A stretch of 64,000 bases of DNA, from assembly GCA_041659465.1 (NCBI GenBank), contig JBAZYD010000002.1:30253-94252 (forward strand). The letters are read 5' to 3'. This DNA comes from Candidatus Micrarchaeia archaeon. Its GTDB lineage: Archaea; Micrarchaeota; Micrarchaeia; Anstonellales; Anstonellaceae. The translations under genes and the position numbers were made by a program. Positions 5,955 to 27,610 of the stretch are shown one piece after another. Positions within the stretch are counted from its first letter, which is position 1. Each line of letters starts with the position of its first letter. The notes under the pieces are model-generated. The model was not told the DNA's origin, did not search any database, and worked only from the letters and a program-made list of their open reading frames with translations.

Positions 5955-6578
5955 CTACATCTGGCCGTTCTTCGAGTAGAGGCCGGATCCAGCTTGGCCG
6001 CGTCTACACCATACCTCGTAGTGCCCATCAAGGCTAGCTTTTTCCAGGATTTTCCGGTTTATTCTCATCAATAGCCGCACCGCTTCTGCATAGTTCGGGG
6101 GGCCGTCCTTTACGTATCGAATGCAGCGGCCGATTAGGGCATCAATTTCCCCGAGTATGGCTTTGGATCTTTTACGGTCGTACTGTCTGACTTCGGAGCT
6201 TTCACGATGGTAATTGTGGCTGAACGATTCCCCCGCCTCTACCCAAACCTGGTCGTCAGTTCTGTCCACCATGTTTTCTTTGGCTAGTTTTTCCCAGATT
6301 TCCCTCGACTCGCTTCCGCCCTGTATTTGCCTCAACGCAATCCAGCGGCTTAAGTATTGGGTTGCACTGTAGGTTAGGAGCTGGGCAAGCCGCGCATCCG
6401 AGATAAGCTTCTCACGCTTCAGGAGCGGCAGTTTTCGGAACTCGCTTAACGTCATGGCGTCCAGCCTGCCCAATACGCCTCTCCGCTGCTTTGCCTTGGG
6501 AATTGCCGTTCCAGGCACGCGCGTCTCGATTTCTCGCCCCCAATGCTTTTCCCCATATCTCTTCATTTTTATTCCCAT
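5955..6578 (-). CDS. hypothetical protein, paralogue A (N-terminal TRVPG..LG.LD.M.L..F..LP.LK module)
   Basis: 26 of 46 N-terminal residues are identical to the ORF at 9031-9690; the rest is unrelated. GGGGGTG SD before the ATG (MGIKMKRY). Confidence 0.55.
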   Translation of the reverse strand: MGIKMKRYGEKHWGREIETRVPGTAIPKAKQRRGVLGRLDAMTLSEFRKLPLLKREKLISDARLAQLLTYSATQYLSRWIALRQIQGGSESREIWEKLAKENMVDRTDDQVWVEAGESFSHNYHRESSEVRQYDRKRSKAILGEIDALIGRCIRYVKDGPPNYAEAVRLLMRINRKILEKASLDGHYEVWCRRGQAGSGLYSKNGQM

Positions 6579-6903
6579 TTCAAACACCCCCTATTTTTTC
6601 ATTTGTCTTTGCTTGCGCTAACTTTCCGTCATGCCATTCTGCCATCGCACAAAGCCGAAGCTGCATTAGTTTCAGCCAGATGGCGCAAGAGGCTTGCGCA
6701 ATTTGCCAGTCACGCTCGCCAGTAACAGTTAGAAGAAAAAGATTTGCTCTGCCTGAGCGGCAGGCGGCGCGCTAATGATTCCCGGAACGGGCCACTTGGG
6801 CTTTTTTCGTTTCGCATTCATTTTCCGCACCTGTCATCCCCATTATGCCGGAGCGCCTTATTAATAGTGTGTAACGAAATGGACGAGTGGGGACTAGGGT
6901 TTA

Positions 6904-7347
6904 CTATGGCTTTTCAATCGTCCTGTAAGAAATCATGGTTATCGACTCCCCTATCCCCTTGTGCTTGCGCAGGTTCGCCACGACGATTTTGTTCAGCTCC
7001 TCCATGTCGCCAATCCTTGCTTTCAGCATGAGGTCAAAGTCGCCAGTCACCATGGCAACCTCGCACACTTGCGGTATTTTTGAGACGTATTCCAGAAGCT
7101 CGTTCTGGTCTGCCTGGTTCACCGCTTTCAGAAGCACGTATGCGGTGAGGGGCTTGCCCAGCTTGTCATGGTTCAGGCGAACCGTGTAGCCTTCTATTAT
7201 TCCCTGCTCGCGCATCTTTTTCGCGCGGTTGTGCACCGTGGTCATGGGTATGCCTGTCTTTTTCGCAATCTTCTGCTCAGACAGGCGCGAGTTCTGCCGC
7301 AGCATGCCCAATATCTGCAAATCCTTGTCATCAATTTTCTCAGACAT
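6904..7347 (-). CDS. lrp: Lrp/AsnC family transcriptional regulator
   Basis: N-terminal HTH (LSEQKIAKKTGIPMTTVHNRAKKM) plus C-terminal RAM domain. GGTGAT SD 4 nt upstream of the ATG at 7347. Confidence 0.85.
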   Translation of the reverse strand: MSEKIDDKDLQILGMLRQNSRLSEQKIAKKTGIPMTTVHNRAKKMREQGIIEGYTVRLNHDKLGKPLTAYVLLKAVNQADQNELLEYVSKIPQVCEVAMVTGDFDLMLKARIGDMEELNKIVVANLRKHKGIGESITMISYRTIEKP

Positions 7348-7444
7348 GGCAATCACCACTTATGGAGTATATGCTCCAATAATCTTTTAAAACAAGCAGT
7401 TTTTTGTGCATACACTGATTTTTTGGAAAAATAATTAAATAAAA
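7341..7444. repeat. promoter/operator module, copy A (lrp / radical-SAM divergent region)
   Basis: Aligns by eye with 9832-9937, including an identical 26-nt core TTTTTTGGAAAAATAATTAAATAAAA (7419-7444 and 9912-9937). Confidence 0.7.
7363..7378. promoter_or_regulatory. TGGAG-N6-CTCCA palindrome (candidate Lrp operator)
   Basis: TGGAGTATATGCTCCA lies just upstream of the lrp SD. The same half-sites and spacing recur at 9854-9869. Confidence 0.4.
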
Positions 7445-7484
7445 GCAATGCCACGAAAAAGCCGTGGAAAATGGAGGTGTAAGG

Positions 7485-8945
7485 ATGTTCATCAAAACAG
7501 CAAAAGCATTCGAAGGCAACGCAGCGCGCGCTGCGCGTCTGGGGCTTAAGGAAGCGCCCACGCTGCGCGGGAATTTCTTCACGCGGCAGGCGTGCCTGGA
7601 GAACCTTGCGGAAAACATGGCGCGCACTGGCAAAGGCGAGCCGCCTCGCTTCCTGCAGATGTGGCTTGAGACCAAGGACGAGTGCAACCTCAAGTGCCCC
7701 ATGTGCTTCACAGCCGCTGCCGGCGCTTTTGGCAGGGCGAAAAACGAGTTTCTTGAATGGGAGCGCGCGCTTAGGGCGGGCAAGGCCGCAGGCATTGGCA
7801 TGGTGGGCATAGCCGGCTGCGGAGAGCCCCTGCTTGACCCAGCATTCCCGCAGCTTGCAAAGGCGGTGAAAGGCAACGGGCTTGACCTGGTTCTGTTCAC
7901 CAACGGCACAAAACTTACAAAGGACAACATCGCGCTCCTGCGCGAGAACTGCGCGGCTGTCGTCACCAAGCTTTTCGCGCTCGAGCCTGCGGCGCATGAC
8001 GTCCTTGTGGGCGTGAAGGGCGAGTATGTGAGGACACGGCGCGCGCTTGCCGACCTGCTCGATGCAGGCTTTAGGGAGCCCAACCTTGCAATCGACGTGG
8101 TGGTGGCAAAGCAGAACAGGGGCGAGCTTGCCACCCTTCTCCGCATGTGCAGGATGCTGGAGGTAATCCCGTATTTTGAAAGGATGGCAATCGAGGGCAA
8201 GGCGAAAAAGCTCAATGGCAGCATGGTGCTTGCGCAGGACGAGGCCGATGCGGCATTCGAGGAGCTGCGGCAGATAGACGAAAAGGAATTCAGCTATACG
8301 TGGGCGCTCACGCCTGGCATGCCTGTGCTTGCGCACGCAGAGACCGACAAGCGCACGGTTGCCTTCCTGCAGGATGCGTTTGGCAATGTCCACCCTGGCG
8401 ACACGCTTGACAAGGTGATGGGCAATATCCGCAACACCGAGGGCGGGATAAATGAAATATTGGGCAATGCTGCTGCGTGGAATGCATATTACAATGAAGT
8501 GGCGCAGGAAGTCGGGCTTGAAAAAGGAAAGGCTGCAAATGAAATGGATGAAGCCGCAAAAATCAATGAAATGACAACGGTGATGAGGCAGACCGCATTC
8601 AACGCGGCAATGGGCATGACGAGCGGAGGGCAGCATGTCCACGAGCACCCTGCGCCAGATGTCAACGGGGGCTTCAAATTGATGGATTTTGCCTTTTGGA
8701 CAACCGAAATAGAAGGGGCGGTAGCGCGCGATGGCAACTACGCAGCCATCCTGCGCACCGTGCACGAGCCTGTGGGCGAGGCGTGCGTGAACTTCCACCT
8801 CAAGCTTTTCAAGGTAATGCCTGACGGGAAAACCGAGCTTCTGCGCCACGACATCCGCCTGAACGACTTTGAGGGCAAGAGGATTGCCGCGGTGGACGGG
8901 GAAGGCATCGCTGTTGACTTTTTCGGCGAGAGGGTGGTGGTGTGA
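7485..8945 (+). CDS. radical SAM enzyme with Cys-poor C-terminal extension, unknown specificity
   Basis: CNLKCPMC (CX3CX2C) cluster motif and a GCGEPLL glycine-rich SAM motif. No Cys-rich SPASM-type tail visible. GGAGGTG SD 5 nt before the ATG at 7485. Confidence 0.8.
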   Translation: MFIKTAKAFEGNAARAARLGLKEAPTLRGNFFTRQACLENLAENMARTGKGEPPRFLQMWLETKDECNLKCPMCFTAAAGAFGRAKNEFLEWERALRAGKAAGIGMVGIAGCGEPLLDPAFPQLAKAVKGNGLDLVLFTNGTKLTKDNIALLRENCAAVVTKLFALEPAAHDVLVGVKGEYVRTRRALADLLDAGFREPNLAIDVVVAKQNRGELATLLRMCRMLEVIPYFERMAIEGKAKKLNGSMVLAQDEADAAFEELRQIDEKEFSYTWALTPGMPVLAHAETDKRTVAFLQDAFGNVHPGDTLDKVMGNIRNTEGGINEILGNAAAWNAYYNEVAQEVGLEKGKAANEMDEAAKINEMTTVMRQTAFNAAMGMTSGGQHVHEHPAPDVNGGFKLMDFAFWTTEIEGAVARDGNYAAILRTVHEPVGEACVNFHLKLFKVMPDGKTELLRHDIRLNDFEGKRIAAVDGEGIAVDFFGERVVV

Positions 8946-9030
8946 GTAAAGTTACATAGGTTTATTATGCGTTATATTTAGAAGTTAAACGTGGCGATTA
9001 ACGCTAGTGTGAAAAATAGAGGTAGTTGAA

Positions 9031-9690
9031 ATGGCATTGATAACAAAGAATGGCGAAGACACGCGTGTGCCGGGCAAGGCACTTCCAAAGGCGCTGCGAA
9101 GGGATGGCGCACTTGGGAAGCTGGACGGCATGGCGCTAAACAAATTCAAAAGGCTCCCGATGCTTAAGCAGGGGGGCCTGCTTGAAGATGCGCGGAATGA
9201 GAAATACGCCCGCATCACATCTCTCATAGCCCGGGTAAAGGATGAGAGCTATGGGAATTTTCAAAACAGATGGGATGCCGTGCCGCTGCTTCTGGCAGAG
9301 GTGCCTGGAAAGCCAAGGCGCGTGCAGAAAGCAATCCTTGCTGCCTTGGCGCCAGTCCTCCTGATAGAAGGCGGAAAATACCGCTGCTTGAAGGCATTCT
9401 ACAAGGTCAAGGGCGATATTCTCGCCGGGCTTCACGGCATCATGGAAAACGACCCCCTGCCAATGAACAAGCGGTTCGCCATAGTCGCCATTGGCAAAAT
9501 TGCGGACTGCGCGTCATACCCGCACATCCTCAAAACAATGAAAATCCACGGGATGAGGGAAGATGTTTACAAATCTTTGGTGGATGTGGTGCCTGTCATT
9601 GCTTTTAGATACATCAACGCCGGCCCGGAATCTACAAAACTTCATGAAGACGCGTGGGGCAAAGCCATCAAGGAAGCAGGCACTGTCTGA
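9031..9690 (+). CDS. hypothetical protein, paralogue B (same N-terminal module; HEAT-like C-terminal part)
   Basis: N-terminus TRVPGKALPKALRRDGALGKLDGMALNKFKRLPMLK matches the ORF at 5955-6578. GAGGTAG SD upstream. Confidence 0.55.
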   Translation: MALITKNGEDTRVPGKALPKALRRDGALGKLDGMALNKFKRLPMLKQGGLLEDARNEKYARITSLIARVKDESYGNFQNRWDAVPLLLAEVPGKPRRVQKAILAALAPVLLIEGGKYRCLKAFYKVKGDILAGLHGIMENDPLPMNKRFAIVAIGKIADCASYPHILKTMKIHGMREDVYKSLVDVVPVIAFRYINAGPESTKLHEDAWGKAIKEAGTV

Positions 9691-9750
9691 CGCCGGGATT
9701 CCAGCACCCGAGTGCGGTTGTCTGCCCTCAAACGCAGAGCGGCAGCAGCC

Positions 9751-9825
9751 TTATTGCTGGCCAAAATACGCCTTGAGCTTCGCGGTGGTGCGCCTTGGTC
9801 TTGGCGGCACCAGCCCTTTCCGCAT
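9751..9825 (-). pseudogene. diverged remnant of an scpB 3' end
   Basis: Translates to MRKGLVPPRPRRTTAKLKAYFGQQ*, versus the true ScpB C-terminus ...ERGFVTTKRAGRTRAVNTTAKFKAYFGQQ* (10953-). The first 40 nt from the stop match at 33 positions. Confidence 0.5.
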
Positions 9826-9831
9826 TGTTTC

Positions 9832-9937
9832 CCGAGATTGGAACCCTCATTTATGGAGCATTCACTCCAAAAAATATAAATTTGGTCGCATTTTTTGAGT
9901 AAATACTCTATTTTTTTGGAAAAATAATTAAATAAAA
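9832..9937. repeat. promoter/operator module, copy B (upstream of SWEET-like gene)
   Basis: Duplicate of 7341-7444, including palindrome TGGAGCATTCACTCCA (9854-9869), the TATA-like core, and similarity to the first ~20 nt of lrp. Confidence 0.7.
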
Positions 9938-9958
9938 CTGGAATTAGAGCAAAAAGAC

Positions 9959-10927
9959 ATGCAAAGAGGCCGCGAGCGTGAGCGCCAGGTGTTGTCCATG
10001 CGCCAAAAAACCATGCAAAAACTGATTGTGCCAGTTGCGTTAGCGGCTGCGCTCACATTCCATTCTCCCTTTATCCGTGCAGGGGAAGGGGCGAGGCTAA
10101 TCGAGGGCAAGGCGCCTATGGGGCTTGCGTCCCAGGAAGCGGCGCATCCGCGCGCGTGCAGCCGGCTTATTGGAAAAACTGCAGGCGTTTGCAAGCGCCA
10201 GCCAGCGCGGATGGGTGGGCGCGCGCTTGAGGTGAAAGCCGAGCCAGCCTTGCATGAGGATGGGGGCAAGGCTGGGGCGCCATGGTGGCTCTCAGCCCTT
10301 GCCAGCCTGTCTGCTCTTGTGAATTTGGGCCTGTTCTACGGAGGCACTGTCTGGAAGGTCTGGAAAACAAAGGGCACGGAGAGCTTTTCCAAGGCATCGC
10401 GAGTGTTAATCTCAGCCGGCGCCCTGCTCTGGGTCGGCTACGGAGTCTGCGTGAACGACTGGGCAGTCATTGCAATGACGGGTCTTGCACTTCCTGGCAG
10501 CATCTATCTGACATGCCTGAAACTGAAGAACAATGACAAGCCAAGGCCCATGGCGCCAAAGGAAAAGAGAATATCCGAGGTTACAACCGGTGCGGCAGTC
10601 CTGGCATTCACTTCGCTTGCAGCCATCGAGTTCCTCTTCGGCAACAGCAGCCTTGGCATTTTGGCCACTGCCCTGGGAGGGGTGGCTGTGATTCTGCGGA
10701 ACCTAAGCCCATGGGCCCAGGCAATCAAGACAATGCTTGACAAATCGACCAAGAACTTTAACTTCTGGGCAACTATACTGGACCCTCCTTCATCGGCAAT
10801 CTGGGTGGCTTATGGCTGGGCGCAGCATGAGATGCCAGTCATGATCTCAAACCTGCTGTCCCTTGCGGCAGGGGCTATTGTTGCAGGCATAATGCTGAAA
10901 AATCGGAAAAAGGACAGGGCAGCGTAG
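9959..10927 (+). CDS. 7-TM SWEET/PQ-loop-like transporter with N-terminal extension
   Basis: Two MtN3-like triple-helix units (VWKTKGTESFSKA...LWVGYG and LSPWAQAIKTMLDKSTKNF...IWVAYGW) joined by a linker TM. The ATG lies ~25 nt after the TATA-like core, so the mRNA may be leaderless. Confidence 0.6.
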   Translation: MQRGRERERQVLSMRQKTMQKLIVPVALAAALTFHSPFIRAGEGARLIEGKAPMGLASQEAAHPRACSRLIGKTAGVCKRQPARMGGRALEVKAEPALHEDGGKAGAPWWLSALASLSALVNLGLFYGGTVWKVWKTKGTESFSKASRVLISAGALLWVGYGVCVNDWAVIAMTGLALPGSIYLTCLKLKNNDKPRPMAPKEKRISEVTTGAAVLAFTSLAAIEFLFGNSSLGILATALGGVAVILRNLSPWAQAIKTMLDKSTKNFNFWATILDPPSSAIWVAYGWAQHEMPVMISNLLSLAAGAIVAGIMLKNRKKDRAA

Positions 10928-24745: not shown

Positions 24746-25279
24746 CTAGTTCCTCGCTCGTGCAAGTGCCATCTGCTCCACAGCAAGCTCTGCCTCGAAA
24801 TAAGCGCCCTTTTTCCTTCCCATCCTTGAAAGCGCGATTTTCTTTGCCTTCACAAGCCCCAGTTCGCGCTTCACTTTCGCAACCGGGATACTTTTTTCGC
24901 AGACGAGCACGAACGCGCGCGCATCCTTTGCGCCAATCCTGCGGAGCGCTGAGGCAAAGTTCATCTCGCGCGCAAGGAACAGCAAAGCTTCGTTTGACAT
25001 CTTTCCGGAGATGTTGCCCTTTTCCTCGAATGCGCGGCTGGCAAGGTAAAAAGCAGCCTCAAGCTCCAGCCCCGTCCGCCCCCGCATCGCCTCAGGCGAA
25101 AGCAGCAGGCAGGGCGTTTGCAGCCCCTCCGCTGCCGTGACTATGGCGCCAAGCGGCCTTTCGGATGAACACGCCAATGCGAGCATGCAGCACTGGGGTG
25201 CCCGAACATTTAAAAACACAACTTCGAATATAGTGCCTGCAAATCCGGTTTTTGATGATTTTGCATTTACGGAGGTCAT
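24746..25279 (-). CDS. cgi121: KEOPS subunit Cgi121-like
   Basis: EALLFLAREMNFASALRRIGAKDARAFVLVCEKS parallels the ...SGQRQIHEAIKIIGAKDGNVCLICE region of archaeal Cgi121 as I recall it. Confidence 0.6.
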   Translation of the reverse strand: MTSVNAKSSKTGFAGTIFEVVFLNVRAPQCCMLALACSSERPLGAIVTAAEGLQTPCLLLSPEAMRGRTGLELEAAFYLASRAFEEKGNISGKMSNEALLFLAREMNFASALRRIGAKDARAFVLVCEKSIPVAKVKRELGLVKAKKIALSRMGRKKGAYFEAELAVEQMALARARN

Positions 25280-25282
25280 TTG

Positions 25283-25663
25283 ATGGAGAACTATCACGGC
25301 GCACGCGGCTCAACCACGAAAGGCACAGGCGGCAAGCGCGGCAAGGCTGCGGACAAGAAGCTCCGCTTCGTAGGCGGGACGTTCACGGCGACCAAGGTGG
25401 GCACAAAGGAGCAGCGCATTGTGAAGCGCGGGCGCGGGAACACCGCGAAGGTGAAGCTGCGCACTGCCAAGTTCGTAAACGTACTGACAAAGGAAGGCAT
25501 GAAGAAAGTGACGCTGAGAACAGTGCTTGAGACGCTGGACAACCGGCACTATGCGCGCCAGAACATCCTCACGCGCGGCGCTGTGGTGGACACTGAAATC
25601 GGGAAGGTCAAGATAACGAACAGGGTTGGACAAGACGGAGTCGTGAACGGACGGTTGCTGTAA
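25283..25663 (+). CDS. rps8e: ribosomal protein S8e
   Basis: HGARGSTTKGTGGKRG...NRHYARQNILTRGAVV is typical of S8e. GGAGGT SD 6 nt upstream. Confidence 0.9.
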   Translation: MENYHGARGSTTKGTGGKRGKAADKKLRFVGGTFTATKVGTKEQRIVKRGRGNTAKVKLRTAKFVNVLTKEGMKKVTLRTVLETLDNRHYARQNILTRGAVVDTEIGKVKITNRVGQDGVVNGRLL

Positions 25664-25677
25664 GTCCGTTCGCGATA

Positions 25678-25760
25678 AGTTGCGCATCAGCGCAACTGTG
25701 TTGTGAACGGCAAGCTTCTCTAAGTTTTCTTTTCCGCTTTTTCTTTTATTTTTTACTCTT
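25678..25760 (+). terminator. hairpin plus T/C-rich tract after rps8e
   Basis: AGTTGCGC-ATCA-GCGCAACT (25678-25697), then TTTTCTTTTCCGCTTTTTCTTTTATTTTTT. Confidence 0.55.
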
Positions 25761-25861
25761 CTTAATGCAAGTGCCGTTAACTTGCTTTATTCTAACCACG
25801 TTTCTCCACAAAAAAAAAACACTTATAAGCTTTGCCCGAGATTTTACTGTTGAGGGATTCC

Positions 25862-26398
25862 ATGGCATTCAAAACCGAAATGGCACCAAACGTAAACATG
25901 GGCACACATGTGATAACATCTGCGGAACGCCTTAACATGGACATGCCGCAAGCACAAAATTTTTTCACGCAGTTCAATAATAAAAAGGCGGAGCCTGGCG
26001 TTGAGAAGTATGCAAGCGGTAAAATCCAACAATTAACCCTCAAAAGTTCTATTGGCGATTCTTTTCCGATTAAATTTGATTCCCGGCAGCCGAGCGATAT
26101 GAATAAGCCCACTGTGTCTGTGGGAGATCACGCTCTGGCTTATGATGCGGTTTCCTCTTTAGAATATAATAAATCCAAAGGCACTCTTACCGTTATTGGC
26201 GAAAGTGAAAAACCTCTCGGAACTTTCCGTGCACCGACTGCTGCTGAAAAAAATGAATTCAAAAAATCGACTGGTGGGATTGAACTTGGCAGCCAGGCTT
26301 TTGTGTTTGAACGTGCCACTGATAATAAAACCATGCTGTTTGATCCAAACCTTCCAAATGGTGCGCTAAAGGACTTTGATGGCAACAAATTCAAGTAA
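25862..26398 (+). CDS. hypothetical soluble protein, AT-rich orphan
   Basis: ORF starting MAFKTEMAPN after GAGGGAT. Composition is clearly AT-richer than the flanks. No motif recognised. Confidence 0.45.
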   Translation: MAFKTEMAPNVNMGTHVITSAERLNMDMPQAQNFFTQFNNKKAEPGVEKYASGKIQQLTLKSSIGDSFPIKFDSRQPSDMNKPTVSVGDHALAYDAVSSLEYNKSKGTLTVIGESEKPLGTFRAPTAAEKNEFKKSTGGIELGSQAFVFERATDNKTMLFDPNLPNGALKDFDGNKFK

Positions 26399-26443
26399 CA
26401 GCAGATTGTCATCCTTTTCTTTTCCTGTTATTTTCTTGTTTCC

Positions 26444-27610
26444 CTACAGCGCAAGCAATATCGACGGCACAATGATGAGCCCCATCACGTGCGTCCTTCT
26501 CACGCCAAGCAACGGAGGCAGCAGCCCCACTGCGGTTGCAGTGGCAAACAGAAGCAATCCCTCCCCTCCTGAAATTATCGCAACCGCTGCCACGAGGTAG
26601 GCAAGCACTCCAAGATTCAGCGCGCGCGTGTCGAACGAGGAAAGCGCGGAGGCGTGGCGGGACAGCCTCATGAGAAGGAATGCGCTTATGCCTGCGGAAA
26701 GGAGGAGAACGCCAAGCAAAACGGGCAAATCCCCCGCAGTCACAGGTTTCACCTCATTAATGATAGCAAGCGCGCCCTCGCGCGCCTTGCCAATGGAAAG
26801 AAGGGAGGAAAAGGCGAACACAGCATGCGATGCCGCAATGGAGGAGACGAGCGCAAGGAACTTGCGCGCATCATCCGTTGCAAAAACAGCAGAGGCAAAC
26901 ACCGCAATCTGCGCAGGCGCGGCAAGGCCCGGGAGCAAGTCGGACAGCATGCCGAAAACCACTCCTGCCGCAACGTATGGCAAAAAGTCAAGCTCCGTCC
27001 TTTCGCTTCTCTGCAAAGGCAGGCGCGTGCGCGAAGTGAATGAGAGAAGGATGCCACTTGCCGCGAACAGGCCTGAGAATGCCGGGAACAGCGGGTCGTT
27101 TATCGCACCGCGGAGCGTGGCAATGCCAAGCGCGCCGGAAAGCAGGAAAACGAATGCCGCAATTGCAATTTTCCCGCGCTCCTTCTCGGACAGCAGCAGA
27201 AAAAGCGAGGCGGCAGCAAGCACGAGGGCCATCTGGGGCTCAATGAACGCATAGGCAACTGGCAGGACGACAAGCGCAACAGGGATGAGCAGCACCGACG
27301 CGCCTGCCCCGGCAAGCGTGGAAAATGCGCACACAGCGACGGCTTCCCTGCCCCTTCCCGCAAGCGCAAGGCGGTGACCTGGCAGCACGGATGCAACTAC
27401 AGTGTCATCCGGTATGGAGAGAAATATTGACGGAAGAAACTGGAAAAGAAGGTGCGCGCCCACCACTGCCACCACGGCAAGTGAAAGCGCCTCGGGCGGG
27501 ATGGGCAAGGTGGCAAGCACCGATGACACTGTGTTTGAGTGGATGCCCGGCAGCAGGCCTGAGAAAATGCCAAGAAGAAGCCCTCCAACAATTGCGATTG
27601 CGGCAATCAC
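26444..27610 (-). CDS. TctA/DUF112-like polytopic membrane protein
   Basis: N-terminal GLLPGIHSNT motif and ~10 hydrophobic helices. Confidence 0.65.
   Translation of the reverse strand: MIAAIAIVGGLLLGIFSGLLPGIHSNTVSSVLATLPIPPEALSLAVVAVVGAHLLFQFLPSIFLSIPDDTVVASVLPGHRLALAGRGREAVAVCAFSTLAGAGASVLLIPVALVVLPVAYAFIEPQMALVLAAASLFLLLSEKERGKIAIAAFVFLLSGALGIATLRGAINDPLFPAFSGLFAASGILLSFTSRTRLPLQRSERTELDFLPYVAAGVVFGMLSDLLPGLAAPAQIAVFASAVFATDDARKFLALVSSIAASHAVFAFSSLLSIGKAREGALAIINEVKPVTAGDLPVLLGVLLLSAGISAFLLMRLSRHASALSSFDTRALNLGVLAYLVAAVAIISGGEGLLLFATATAVGLLPPLLGVRRTHVMGLIIVPSILLAL

Follow-up and report, generated by a model that had tools for sequence, protein, structure and literature searches.

The window analysed here, 64,000 nucleotides of contig JBAZYD010000002.1 from a Candidatus Micrarchaeia archaeon, contains a four-gene region in which an Lrp-type regulator gene (lrp) and a divergent radical S-adenosylmethionine (SAM) enzyme gene lie between two genes, A and B, whose products share an N-terminal module. 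The open reading frames (ORFs) of the window give the order A (-), lrp (-), radical SAM (+), B (+), as described in an earlier note on this DNA, which had tentatively read the four genes as an Lrp-controlled protein-modification cassette with the module as the target of the enzyme. The ORF of A (5955-6587, minus strand) is open back to a GTG at 6587, and its true start is likely the ATG at 6578 (MGIK..., with GGGGGTG before it), for a protein of ~207 residues (5955-6578) whose C-terminal part is helical and has no family match. The lrp ORF was first called as 6904-7359 (minus strand); its likely start is the ATG at 7347, the same start being kept in six loci, which leaves 147 residues (6904-7347). 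The radical SAM ORF (7464-8945, plus strand) likely begins at the ATG at 7485, with a GGAGGTG 6 nucleotides upstream, and the database copy has 486 residues (7485-8945). Paralogue B (9031-9690, plus strand; 219 residues) has its own A/T-rich upstream region and Shine-Dalgarno (SD) sequence. The module spans ~66 residues in A (6381-6578, minus strand), where the hairpin described below carries a 7-residue insertion, and ~58 residues in B (9031-9204, plus strand). The flanks of the region are archaeal housekeeping genes (Orc1/Cdc6, HisRS, thioredoxin and ScpA/ScpB), and the window's genome, G000, is ~1.4 Mb (1.36 Mb) at 84% completeness. Below, G-numbers denote sampled genomes, L-numbers loci of relatives and P-numbers module proteins.

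The earlier description of a 46-residue N-terminal module in two proteins that are otherwise unrelated was confirmed by BLASTP. A and B share 26 of 46 identities and 37 of 46 positives (E 1e-15) and nothing aligned outside the module; judged from the alignment, this likeness is far beyond chance. A search of the genome found the module in four proteins, always at the N-terminus: A, B, a C4 copy in a protein of 175-180 residues and a C14 copy in a protein of 380 residues, neither of the latter near a radical SAM gene. A profile made from the four modules, which matches A with an E of 3.6e-32, found only 48 matches among 1.84 billion representative proteins. In all 48, which range from 56 to 454 residues in length, the module begins at or before residue 40. 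With the module removed, the tails of 45 proteins (the profile matches plus A and B) fell into 33 unrelated BLAST clusters. Tail types with family support are HEAT/PBS-lyase repeats (P0048 and P0059 match HEAT_PBS/HEAT_2), helicase-associated (HA) repeats and a Janus/Ocnus (PHPT1-like) domain. Of nine homologous pairs compared, eight show stronger conservation in the module than elsewhere in the protein; G15, R24 and D32 are invariant together with hydrophobic positions, and R12 joins R24 among the invariant or nearly invariant residues. No Pfam, NCBIfam or PADLOC model was matched above threshold by A, B or the module, a word-based homologue search with the module region of B found B alone, and a metagenome scan with a single module sequence returned two short contigs only. 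The module is an undescribed N-terminal domain of a genus-restricted, highly polymorphic family, in which A has the orthologues P0028, P0031, P0064 and L010:4655-5200 and B has P0032.

Several observations concern the tails and the 5' ends of module genes. By eye, further tails include TPR-like repeats and a membrane segment, and the C-terminal part of B resembles HEAT-type repeats, for which Pfam gave no confirmation in B. The Janus/Ocnus domain (PF05005, E 1e-7) occurs in P0026, P0035 (G081:C9:2675-3679) and P0036 and is unusual in an archaeon. Translation starts of module genes are stereotyped, with an A-rich leader and GGAGGTG followed by ATGGCATTG, and the C4 and C14 module loci have a ~160-nucleotide upstream segment of 71% identity in common. 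Directly upstream of these two module genes lie 35-codon ORFs (G000:C4:77524-77631 and G000:C14:30350-30457, both minus strand), each with its own GGAGGTG SD and encoding MMKTFGMAADLAARASVWGAKAPIAEGPRIGVCAC and MMGMVAKVAGAAFRASIWGARAPMVEGPRISVCAC. The two peptides are of equal length, are identical at 20 of 35 residues and both end in VCAC; their DNA is 71% identical over 159 nucleotides, and the ORF is absent at the orthologous loci of G081 and L040. Candidate explanations are a gene for a small peptide, a leader element and a degenerate copy of the module 5' end. A 447-residue gene divergent from a double-Lrp gene (G000:C12:33845-35188, plus strand) begins with VRQAGLDIEKQLPIAERLLLANVQAKQ, which resembles a degenerate module and was missed by the profile. 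Module genes also occur in tandem arrays: at L040:1353-3228 a 230-residue member is followed by a 393-residue gene with a decayed module, a phage-type integrase lying 2.6 kb from this pair, and the contig of P0027 carries genes of 181, 92 and 224 residues in a row beside TrmB.

Module and enzyme are distributed independently. Among 151 genomes of the phylum, the module was found only in the window's genus (Anstonellaceae, Micrarchaeota; G000, G013, G025 and G081), and the radical SAM enzyme in G000, G013 and G106 with a weak match in G147. In G013 both occur, on different contigs; G025 and G081 carry the module but lack the enzyme, and the reverse holds for G106. An Lrp-type gene is divergent to the radical SAM gene in all eight distinct readable loci, as a single Lrp in seven and as a tandem 'double-Lrp' in G106. 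Two of the eight have a module gene, namely the window and its closest relatives L010-L012; none is present at L015, L016, L017, L029 and L064/L065. In L010-L012 the orthologue of A is kept, whereas the place of B is taken by an unrelated 522-residue gene in L010 and, at L013, by two other genes. L064/L065 have the order Trx-Lrp-rSAM-ScpB-ScpA with no module ORF, 46 base pairs between trx and lrp and a radical SAM gene that runs into scpB; the enzyme there is 52% identical and has the same beta-rich C-terminal extension. Because this core exists without module genes, A and B are best seen as insertions at two variable spots around it. The module is very unlikely to be the target of the radical SAM enzyme since it occurs independently of it, and with this result the earlier lead proposal falls: two of the four genome copies and all copies in G081 and G025 are without the enzyme, while the enzyme is without the module in L015, L016, L017, G106 and L064/L065. 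The co-occurrence check proposed with it therefore gave separate occurrence, the flanking family being found away from any radical SAM neighbour. The half of that proposal that concerned an Lrp-controlled radical SAM gene gained support from the conserved divergent pairing and from the intergenic motifs described below. As a separate observation, the radical SAM-scpB interval is an insertion hot spot (window 8946-9958, L010:7463-9031, L013:2037-4741, L064:3220), which is empty in L064 and holds the 522-residue gene in L010, two genes in L013, and B plus a SWEET-like gene in the window.

The enzyme matches Pfam Radical_SAM (PF04055) at 43.9 bits against a cut-off of 29.5, which places it in the superfamily, and its CX3CX2C motif (CNLKCPMC, nucleotides 7683-7706) contributes a Cys triad that is nearly invariant in 14 homologues. 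It represents a small, uncharacterised, Micrarchaeota-restricted subfamily, with 16 homologues in 5.8 billion proteins. Homologues align over a conserved core of about residues 1-345 and then diverge. The C-terminal extension (8517-8945, plus strand), modeled by AlphaFold at low confidence as a long helix (350-377) followed by beta strands (385-486), is in homologues either absent, ~140 residues and beta-rich, or ~320 residues and helical. Neither a SPASM nor a TRAM Pfam match was found, nor an auxiliary-cluster Cys motif or a conserved Cys beyond the core in the alignment; NCBIfam SPASM equivalogs cover core residues 65-235 only, at 30-64 bits against cut-offs of 265-850. The features listed in the earlier note, a CX3CX2C enzyme with a helical-then-beta extension in place of SPASM or TRAM, are thus present, while the length of ~170 residues given there is corrected to ~140. 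Pfam and NCBIfam gave no match to an RRE or PqqD-like winged helix-turn-helix domain, and within the N-terminal 57 residues only two helices are predicted.

The possibility, raised earlier, that this enzyme belongs to a characterised family was not borne out, as all NCBIfam equivalogs score far below their cut-offs: W_rSAM_matur 63.8 against 380, MoaA 51 against 284, AhbD 45.7 against 500, AhbC 36.8 against 650 and viperin 33.6 against 180. Prokaryotic viperin was rejected as generic-core similarity, the PADLOC pVip model giving 41 bits over the core only. An Ahb/NirJ-type tetrapyrrole pathway, in which an Lrp-like decarboxylase accompanies a radical SAM enzyme, was rejected on scores far below cut-off, on the canonical-regulator character of the Lrp and on the lack of any other AhbD-like gene in the genome; the only weak match to the AhbD model is this radical SAM enzyme itself, AhbD being from the same enzyme branch. 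The top Foldseek matches of the predicted structure are SkfB, BlsE, SuiB, DesII, MoaA, EpeE and viperin, a set that includes both peptide maturases and small-molecule enzymes. Similar to the radical SAM maturases SkfB, SuiB, CteB, PqqE, EpeE and anSME, the enzyme has a CX3CX2C core and its best structural neighbours lie in that branch. In contrast to them, it has no SPASM/twitch cysteines, no RRE domain and no conserved adjacent precursor gene, and its sole conserved partner is the Lrp-type regulator.

The regulator is a member of the Lrp/AsnC (FFRP) family, with Pfam matches above cut-off to HTH_AsnC-type (E 5e-10; 39.5 bits against 27), HTH_24 (E 2e-11; 43.8 against 21.9) and AsnC_trans_reg (E 9e-14; 51.5 against 25). 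Its best NCBIfam matches are LysM and Lrp, both under the equivalog cut-offs, and it failed as a siroheme decarboxylase (AhbB 21.5 against 125, AhbA 12.5 against 140, NirdL-like_HTH 14.7 against 27). The divergent region between lrp and the radical SAM gene (7348-7484) contains a near-palindrome TGGAGTATATGCTCCA at 7363-7378, 16-31 nucleotides upstream of the lrp ATG, a position that would suit the TATA box of a leaderless transcript. It further contains a TTTTTTGTGCA..TAC block and, ahead of the radical SAM gene, an A/T-rich TATA-like box TTTTTGGAAAAATAATTAAATAAAA at 7420-7444 (G000:C2:37672) and the SD GGAGGTG. In an alignment of six loci these blocks are kept, although the radical SAM proteins encoded there are only ~50% identical. 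Such a layout is usual for Lrp (FFRP) autoregulation plus control of a divergent target, and most likely the Lrp autoregulates and controls the radical SAM gene, as read from the conserved intergenic sequence.

A second copy of this operator-promoter lies at 9845-9945 (plus strand), its TGGAG-N6-CTCCA palindrome at 9854-9869, with 75% mean column identity and an identical 25-nucleotide TATA-like box, before a SWEET-like (SWEET/PQ-loop) transporter gene (9959-10927, plus strand; Pfam MtN3_slv). A genome-wide pattern scan found the two motifs at these two sites only, and the Lrp operator motifs were not found upstream of A or B. The Lrp probably also controls the SWEET-like transporter in this genome, and the presence of only two operator copies suggests a small regulon of lrp, the radical SAM gene and the transporter gene. 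This regulator shares with archaeal Lrp/AsnC local regulators (LysM, LrpA, Lrs14-type) the HTH_AsnC plus RAM architecture, the divergent arrangement and a conserved palindrome that overlaps the predicted promoter. It differs in that its target is an uncharacterised radical SAM gene together with a SWEET-like transporter gene reached via a duplicated promoter, and in that the genus also has an expanded tandem 'double-Lrp' family, with seven members in this genome. The Lrp-radical SAM unit, with its defined operator motifs and the duplicated SWEET promoter, offers a handle on the function of the radical SAM subfamily, whose branch has no other member in this small genome. Anstonellales are comparatively metabolically capable and self-sufficient Micrarchaeota (PMC12892359), which agrees with an Lrp regulon that responds to amino acids and is a mild argument against an exclusively host-directed role.

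Regulator genes are also frequent beside the module genes. In 10 of 14 readable module loci a winged-helix regulator of the Lrp, double-Lrp or TrmB type is directly adjacent, usually divergent: a double-Lrp at C14, G081 L031 and L033, L040, L041 and L042, a TrmB at C4 and G081 L032, and a single Lrp in the window and at L010. Where double-Lrp genes are orthologous, a module partner is retained and its tail differs (L033 against L042, C14 against L040). The genome has five single and seven double Lrp-type genes (~12) in 1.36 Mb, and two of its four module genes are adjacent to one of them, well above the chance expectation of ~2%.

The structure of the module was predicted with AlphaFold from a 42-sequence alignment. 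The module of B reaches a mean predicted local distance difference test (pLDDT) score of 90.8 and is modeled as a beta-hairpin (residues 2-13) and helices at 27-32, 36-40 and from 44 onwards, with a conserved loop RVPGxAIPExQRRxG after the hairpin. This confidently predicted small fold, carried on many unrelated tails, supports the fallback of the earlier note, a common autonomous domain, apart from the DNA- or ligand-binding function proposed there. The second half of the modeled module weakly but consistently resembles the villin headpiece (VHP, PF02209), an F-actin-binding module found at the C-terminus of villin, advillin, dematin, abLIM and supervillin. In a profile search of Protein Data Bank (PDB) sequences the abLIM headpiece 1ujs ranked first (E 0.45) and the villin headpiece 4cz4 third (E 0.63). 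Pfam VHP was matched by three of 42 members (best E 0.026) and was the sole family matched by more than one; A and B themselves have no VHP match, and the gathering score was not reached. Foldseek against the PDB returned 27 matches, 19 of which are headpiece-containing structures (villin, advillin, dematin), all with E >3. The best superpositions, on HP35 and HP67, have a root-mean-square deviation of 0.5-0.6 Å over only 18-22 residues at 35-44% identity, again with E >3. Alignment by hhalign to chicken HP67 gave 57% probability and P 1e-4 over 21 columns. The pattern in common is GM-x-x-S-x-F-x-x-LPL-x5-L, for which the module has GMSLSEFRKLPLLEREKL. A search of a viral structure library gave no meaningful match, and a literature search for villin headpieces in archaea found only uses of VHP as a folding reporter.

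Both the module, as predicted, and the headpiece are small and autonomous, with a motif of three short helices and a G-M-x-x-S-x-F pattern, and both are appended to many different architectures. The two also differ. The module is N-terminal with a beta-hairpin before the motif, whereas the headpiece is C-terminal; helix 3 of the module has no terminal GLF and runs on into the protein, whereas the headpiece ends in ...GLF. In the villin numbering of HP67 (F47/F51/F58/W64/K65/K70/K71/L75-F76), F39 of B is the nearly invariant equivalent of F58, F51 aligns with the invariant D32 and W64 with L or M, and neither the F47/F51 core nor the actin-binding residues W64/K65/K70-71 are kept. An actin partner for a headpiece-like domain was rejected, as the 84%-complete genome has no actin-family (PF00022) match; a single match to the MreB model lies in a 642-residue ORF that is probably an Hsp70. 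We consider this a resemblance rather than membership of the headpiece family because the matches are non-significant and non-independent, core and contact residues are lost, the position is reversed and actin was not detected. It does provide a concrete structural hypothesis for the module.

Together, these data make it probable that the region consists of two unrelated units side by side, the conserved lrp/radical SAM pair and the inserted genes A and B for proteins with a candidate docking module. The Lrp/AsnC regulator and the divergent radical SAM gene share the palindromic, TATA-containing element and the second A/T box, and A and B would have inserted at two variable spots, trx-lrp and radical SAM-scpB. 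The module may act as a docking or adaptor domain through which diverse C-terminal domains reach a single shared partner, and a neighbouring Lrp- or TrmB-type regulator would usually control module genes locally. The tempting lead of a novel radical-SAM protein-modification cassette is thereby removed, as no evidence for one was found here. What remains is a module confined to one DPANN genus and joined to dozens of tails, a pattern usual for docking, targeting or DNA-binding handles. A bolder extension, which we regard as a long shot, is that the module is an archaeal relative or close structural mimic of the villin headpiece that serves as a universal anchor for more than 30 tails on one filament or scaffold, each with its own Lrp-type switch. 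Such a scaffold would be either the archaeon's own or that of a partner cell. Micrarchaeota would then have a polymorphic 'anchor plus payload' system peculiar to this lineage, and a fold linked until now with eukaryotic actin biology would occur in a prokaryote.

Several points weigh against these proposals. Docking is favoured from architecture only. A or its orthologue stays beside lrp/radical SAM in the closest relatives L010-L012, which leaves a little room for a lineage-specific link of A with the enzyme. The regulator adjacency is partly explained by the pairing of the double-Lrp family with unrelated genes as well, and the loci counted are not independent because several are orthologous. 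The headpiece matches are individually non-significant (E 0.026 to >3), cover only ~21 residues and trace to one sequence motif; HP35 structures are numerous in the training set of AlphaFold and could have biased the model, and neither the headpiece core F47 and F51 nor the actin-contact residues are retained.

Among the other explanations, we give some weight to a nucleic-acid-binding role, unlikely as it is, in which module proteins would be co-regulators that act with the adjacent Lrp- or TrmB-type factors at shared divergent promoters. The module is always N-terminal, as in many one-component regulators, has the conserved basic residues R12 and R24 and shows a striking preference for sites beside winged helix-turn-helix regulator genes, mostly divergent, and double-Lrp orthologues retain a module partner through tail swaps (L033/L042, C14/L040). 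However, no DNA-binding family was matched in Pfam, NCBIfam or the PDB and the net charge of the module is only mildly positive. HEAT, TPR, membrane and coiled-coil tails are atypical of sensors, and 33 tail types in 45 proteins would be unusual for regulators. Improbable to a greater degree is that the module is a targeting or export handle of polymorphic effectors whose tails would function extracellularly or inside a partner cell. The constant N-terminus with polymorphic tails, the several copies per genome and the patchy presence among close relatives would suit this, as would the tandem arrays, the integrase near L040 and the fact that many Micrarchaeota are host-associated (PMC12892359). 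Against it, module proteins have no signal peptide or known secretion motif, no toxin or enzyme domain was detected in the tails except in the one Janus/PHPT1-like group, PADLOC gave no matches, no conserved transport genes lie nearby, and Anstonellales are among the more self-sufficient Micrarchaeota (PMC12892359). A likeness of 'RRxGALGKLD' to an SHP-box or Tat motif, noted by eye, was dropped because the segment is predicted to form a helical part of a folded domain and is not followed by an h-region. The module family resembles LXG and Rhs/PT-type polymorphic toxins and one-component regulators in having one N-terminal handle on many tails (>30 here), several paralogues per genome, a patchy distribution and tail swapping at orthologous loci, but unlike LXG and Rhs/PT systems it has no recognisable toxin/immunity pairs, secretion-system genes or match to a known handle.

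The substrate model, in which the module is a recognition or modification segment of radical SAM substrates and the four genes form an Lrp-controlled modification cassette, now appears highly improbable. It draws on the physical adjacency in the window, on the A orthologue retained in L010-L012 and on the presence of maturases of ribosomally synthesized and post-translationally modified peptides (SkfB, SuiB, EpeE, CteB and PqqE) among the structural neighbours of the enzyme. What contradicts it is that the module occurs where the enzyme is lacking (G025, G081, C4, C14) and the enzyme where the module is lacking (L015-L017, G106, L064/L065), and that unrelated genes hold the position of B in relatives. 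The enzyme also lacks an RRE/PqqD-like domain and SPASM/twitch cysteines, the module is predicted to be a compact folded domain and not an extended leader, and neither A nor B has the Lrp operator upstream. The least credible reading attributes the A-B similarity to duplication or gene conversion, at the DNA level, of a promoter and 5' coding segment with no specific protein function. The stereotyped starts, the 71% identical upstream segment at C4 and C14 and the swapped tails beside orthologous regulators are compatible with this. Yet the A and B modules are only 57% identical in protein and no DNA repeat links them, the search having returned chance-level short matches only. The conserved residue pattern, the stronger conservation of module than tail in eight of nine pairs and the predicted fold (pLDDT 91) likewise argue for a protein-level function. 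Two units, the lrp/radical SAM pair and inserted docking-module genes, therefore remain the favoured reading of the locus.

The gap between A and lrp (6588-6903) had been singled out earlier for its length and hairpins. The 316 base pairs and both hairpins (6683-6699 and 6750-6764) are present, while the special character of the gap was not upheld: its folding energy is no better than that of shuffled sequence (z = +0.65), and the first hairpin is not retained in the syntenic gap of L010, which is shorter and only partly alignable. Rfam gave no match either, and the gap shows no sign of a structured RNA.

Two further protein groups were observed. The double-Lrp proteins are ~320-330 residues long, each with two HTH_AsnC + RAM units, and their genes are mostly divergent to poorly characterised genes; there are seven in G000 (among them C14:27515-28483, C14:30609-31601, C12:32772-33761 and C15:35035-36027), 13 in G153 and nine in G157. 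Near module and double-Lrp loci there recur genes for large Cys-rich proteins that have no Pfam match and carry repeated C-x-x-C and 'CYFCHN'-type motifs, at G000:C14:23599-25272 and 25208-26785 (both minus strand), L042:4456-6042 and G000:C12:19959-20981.

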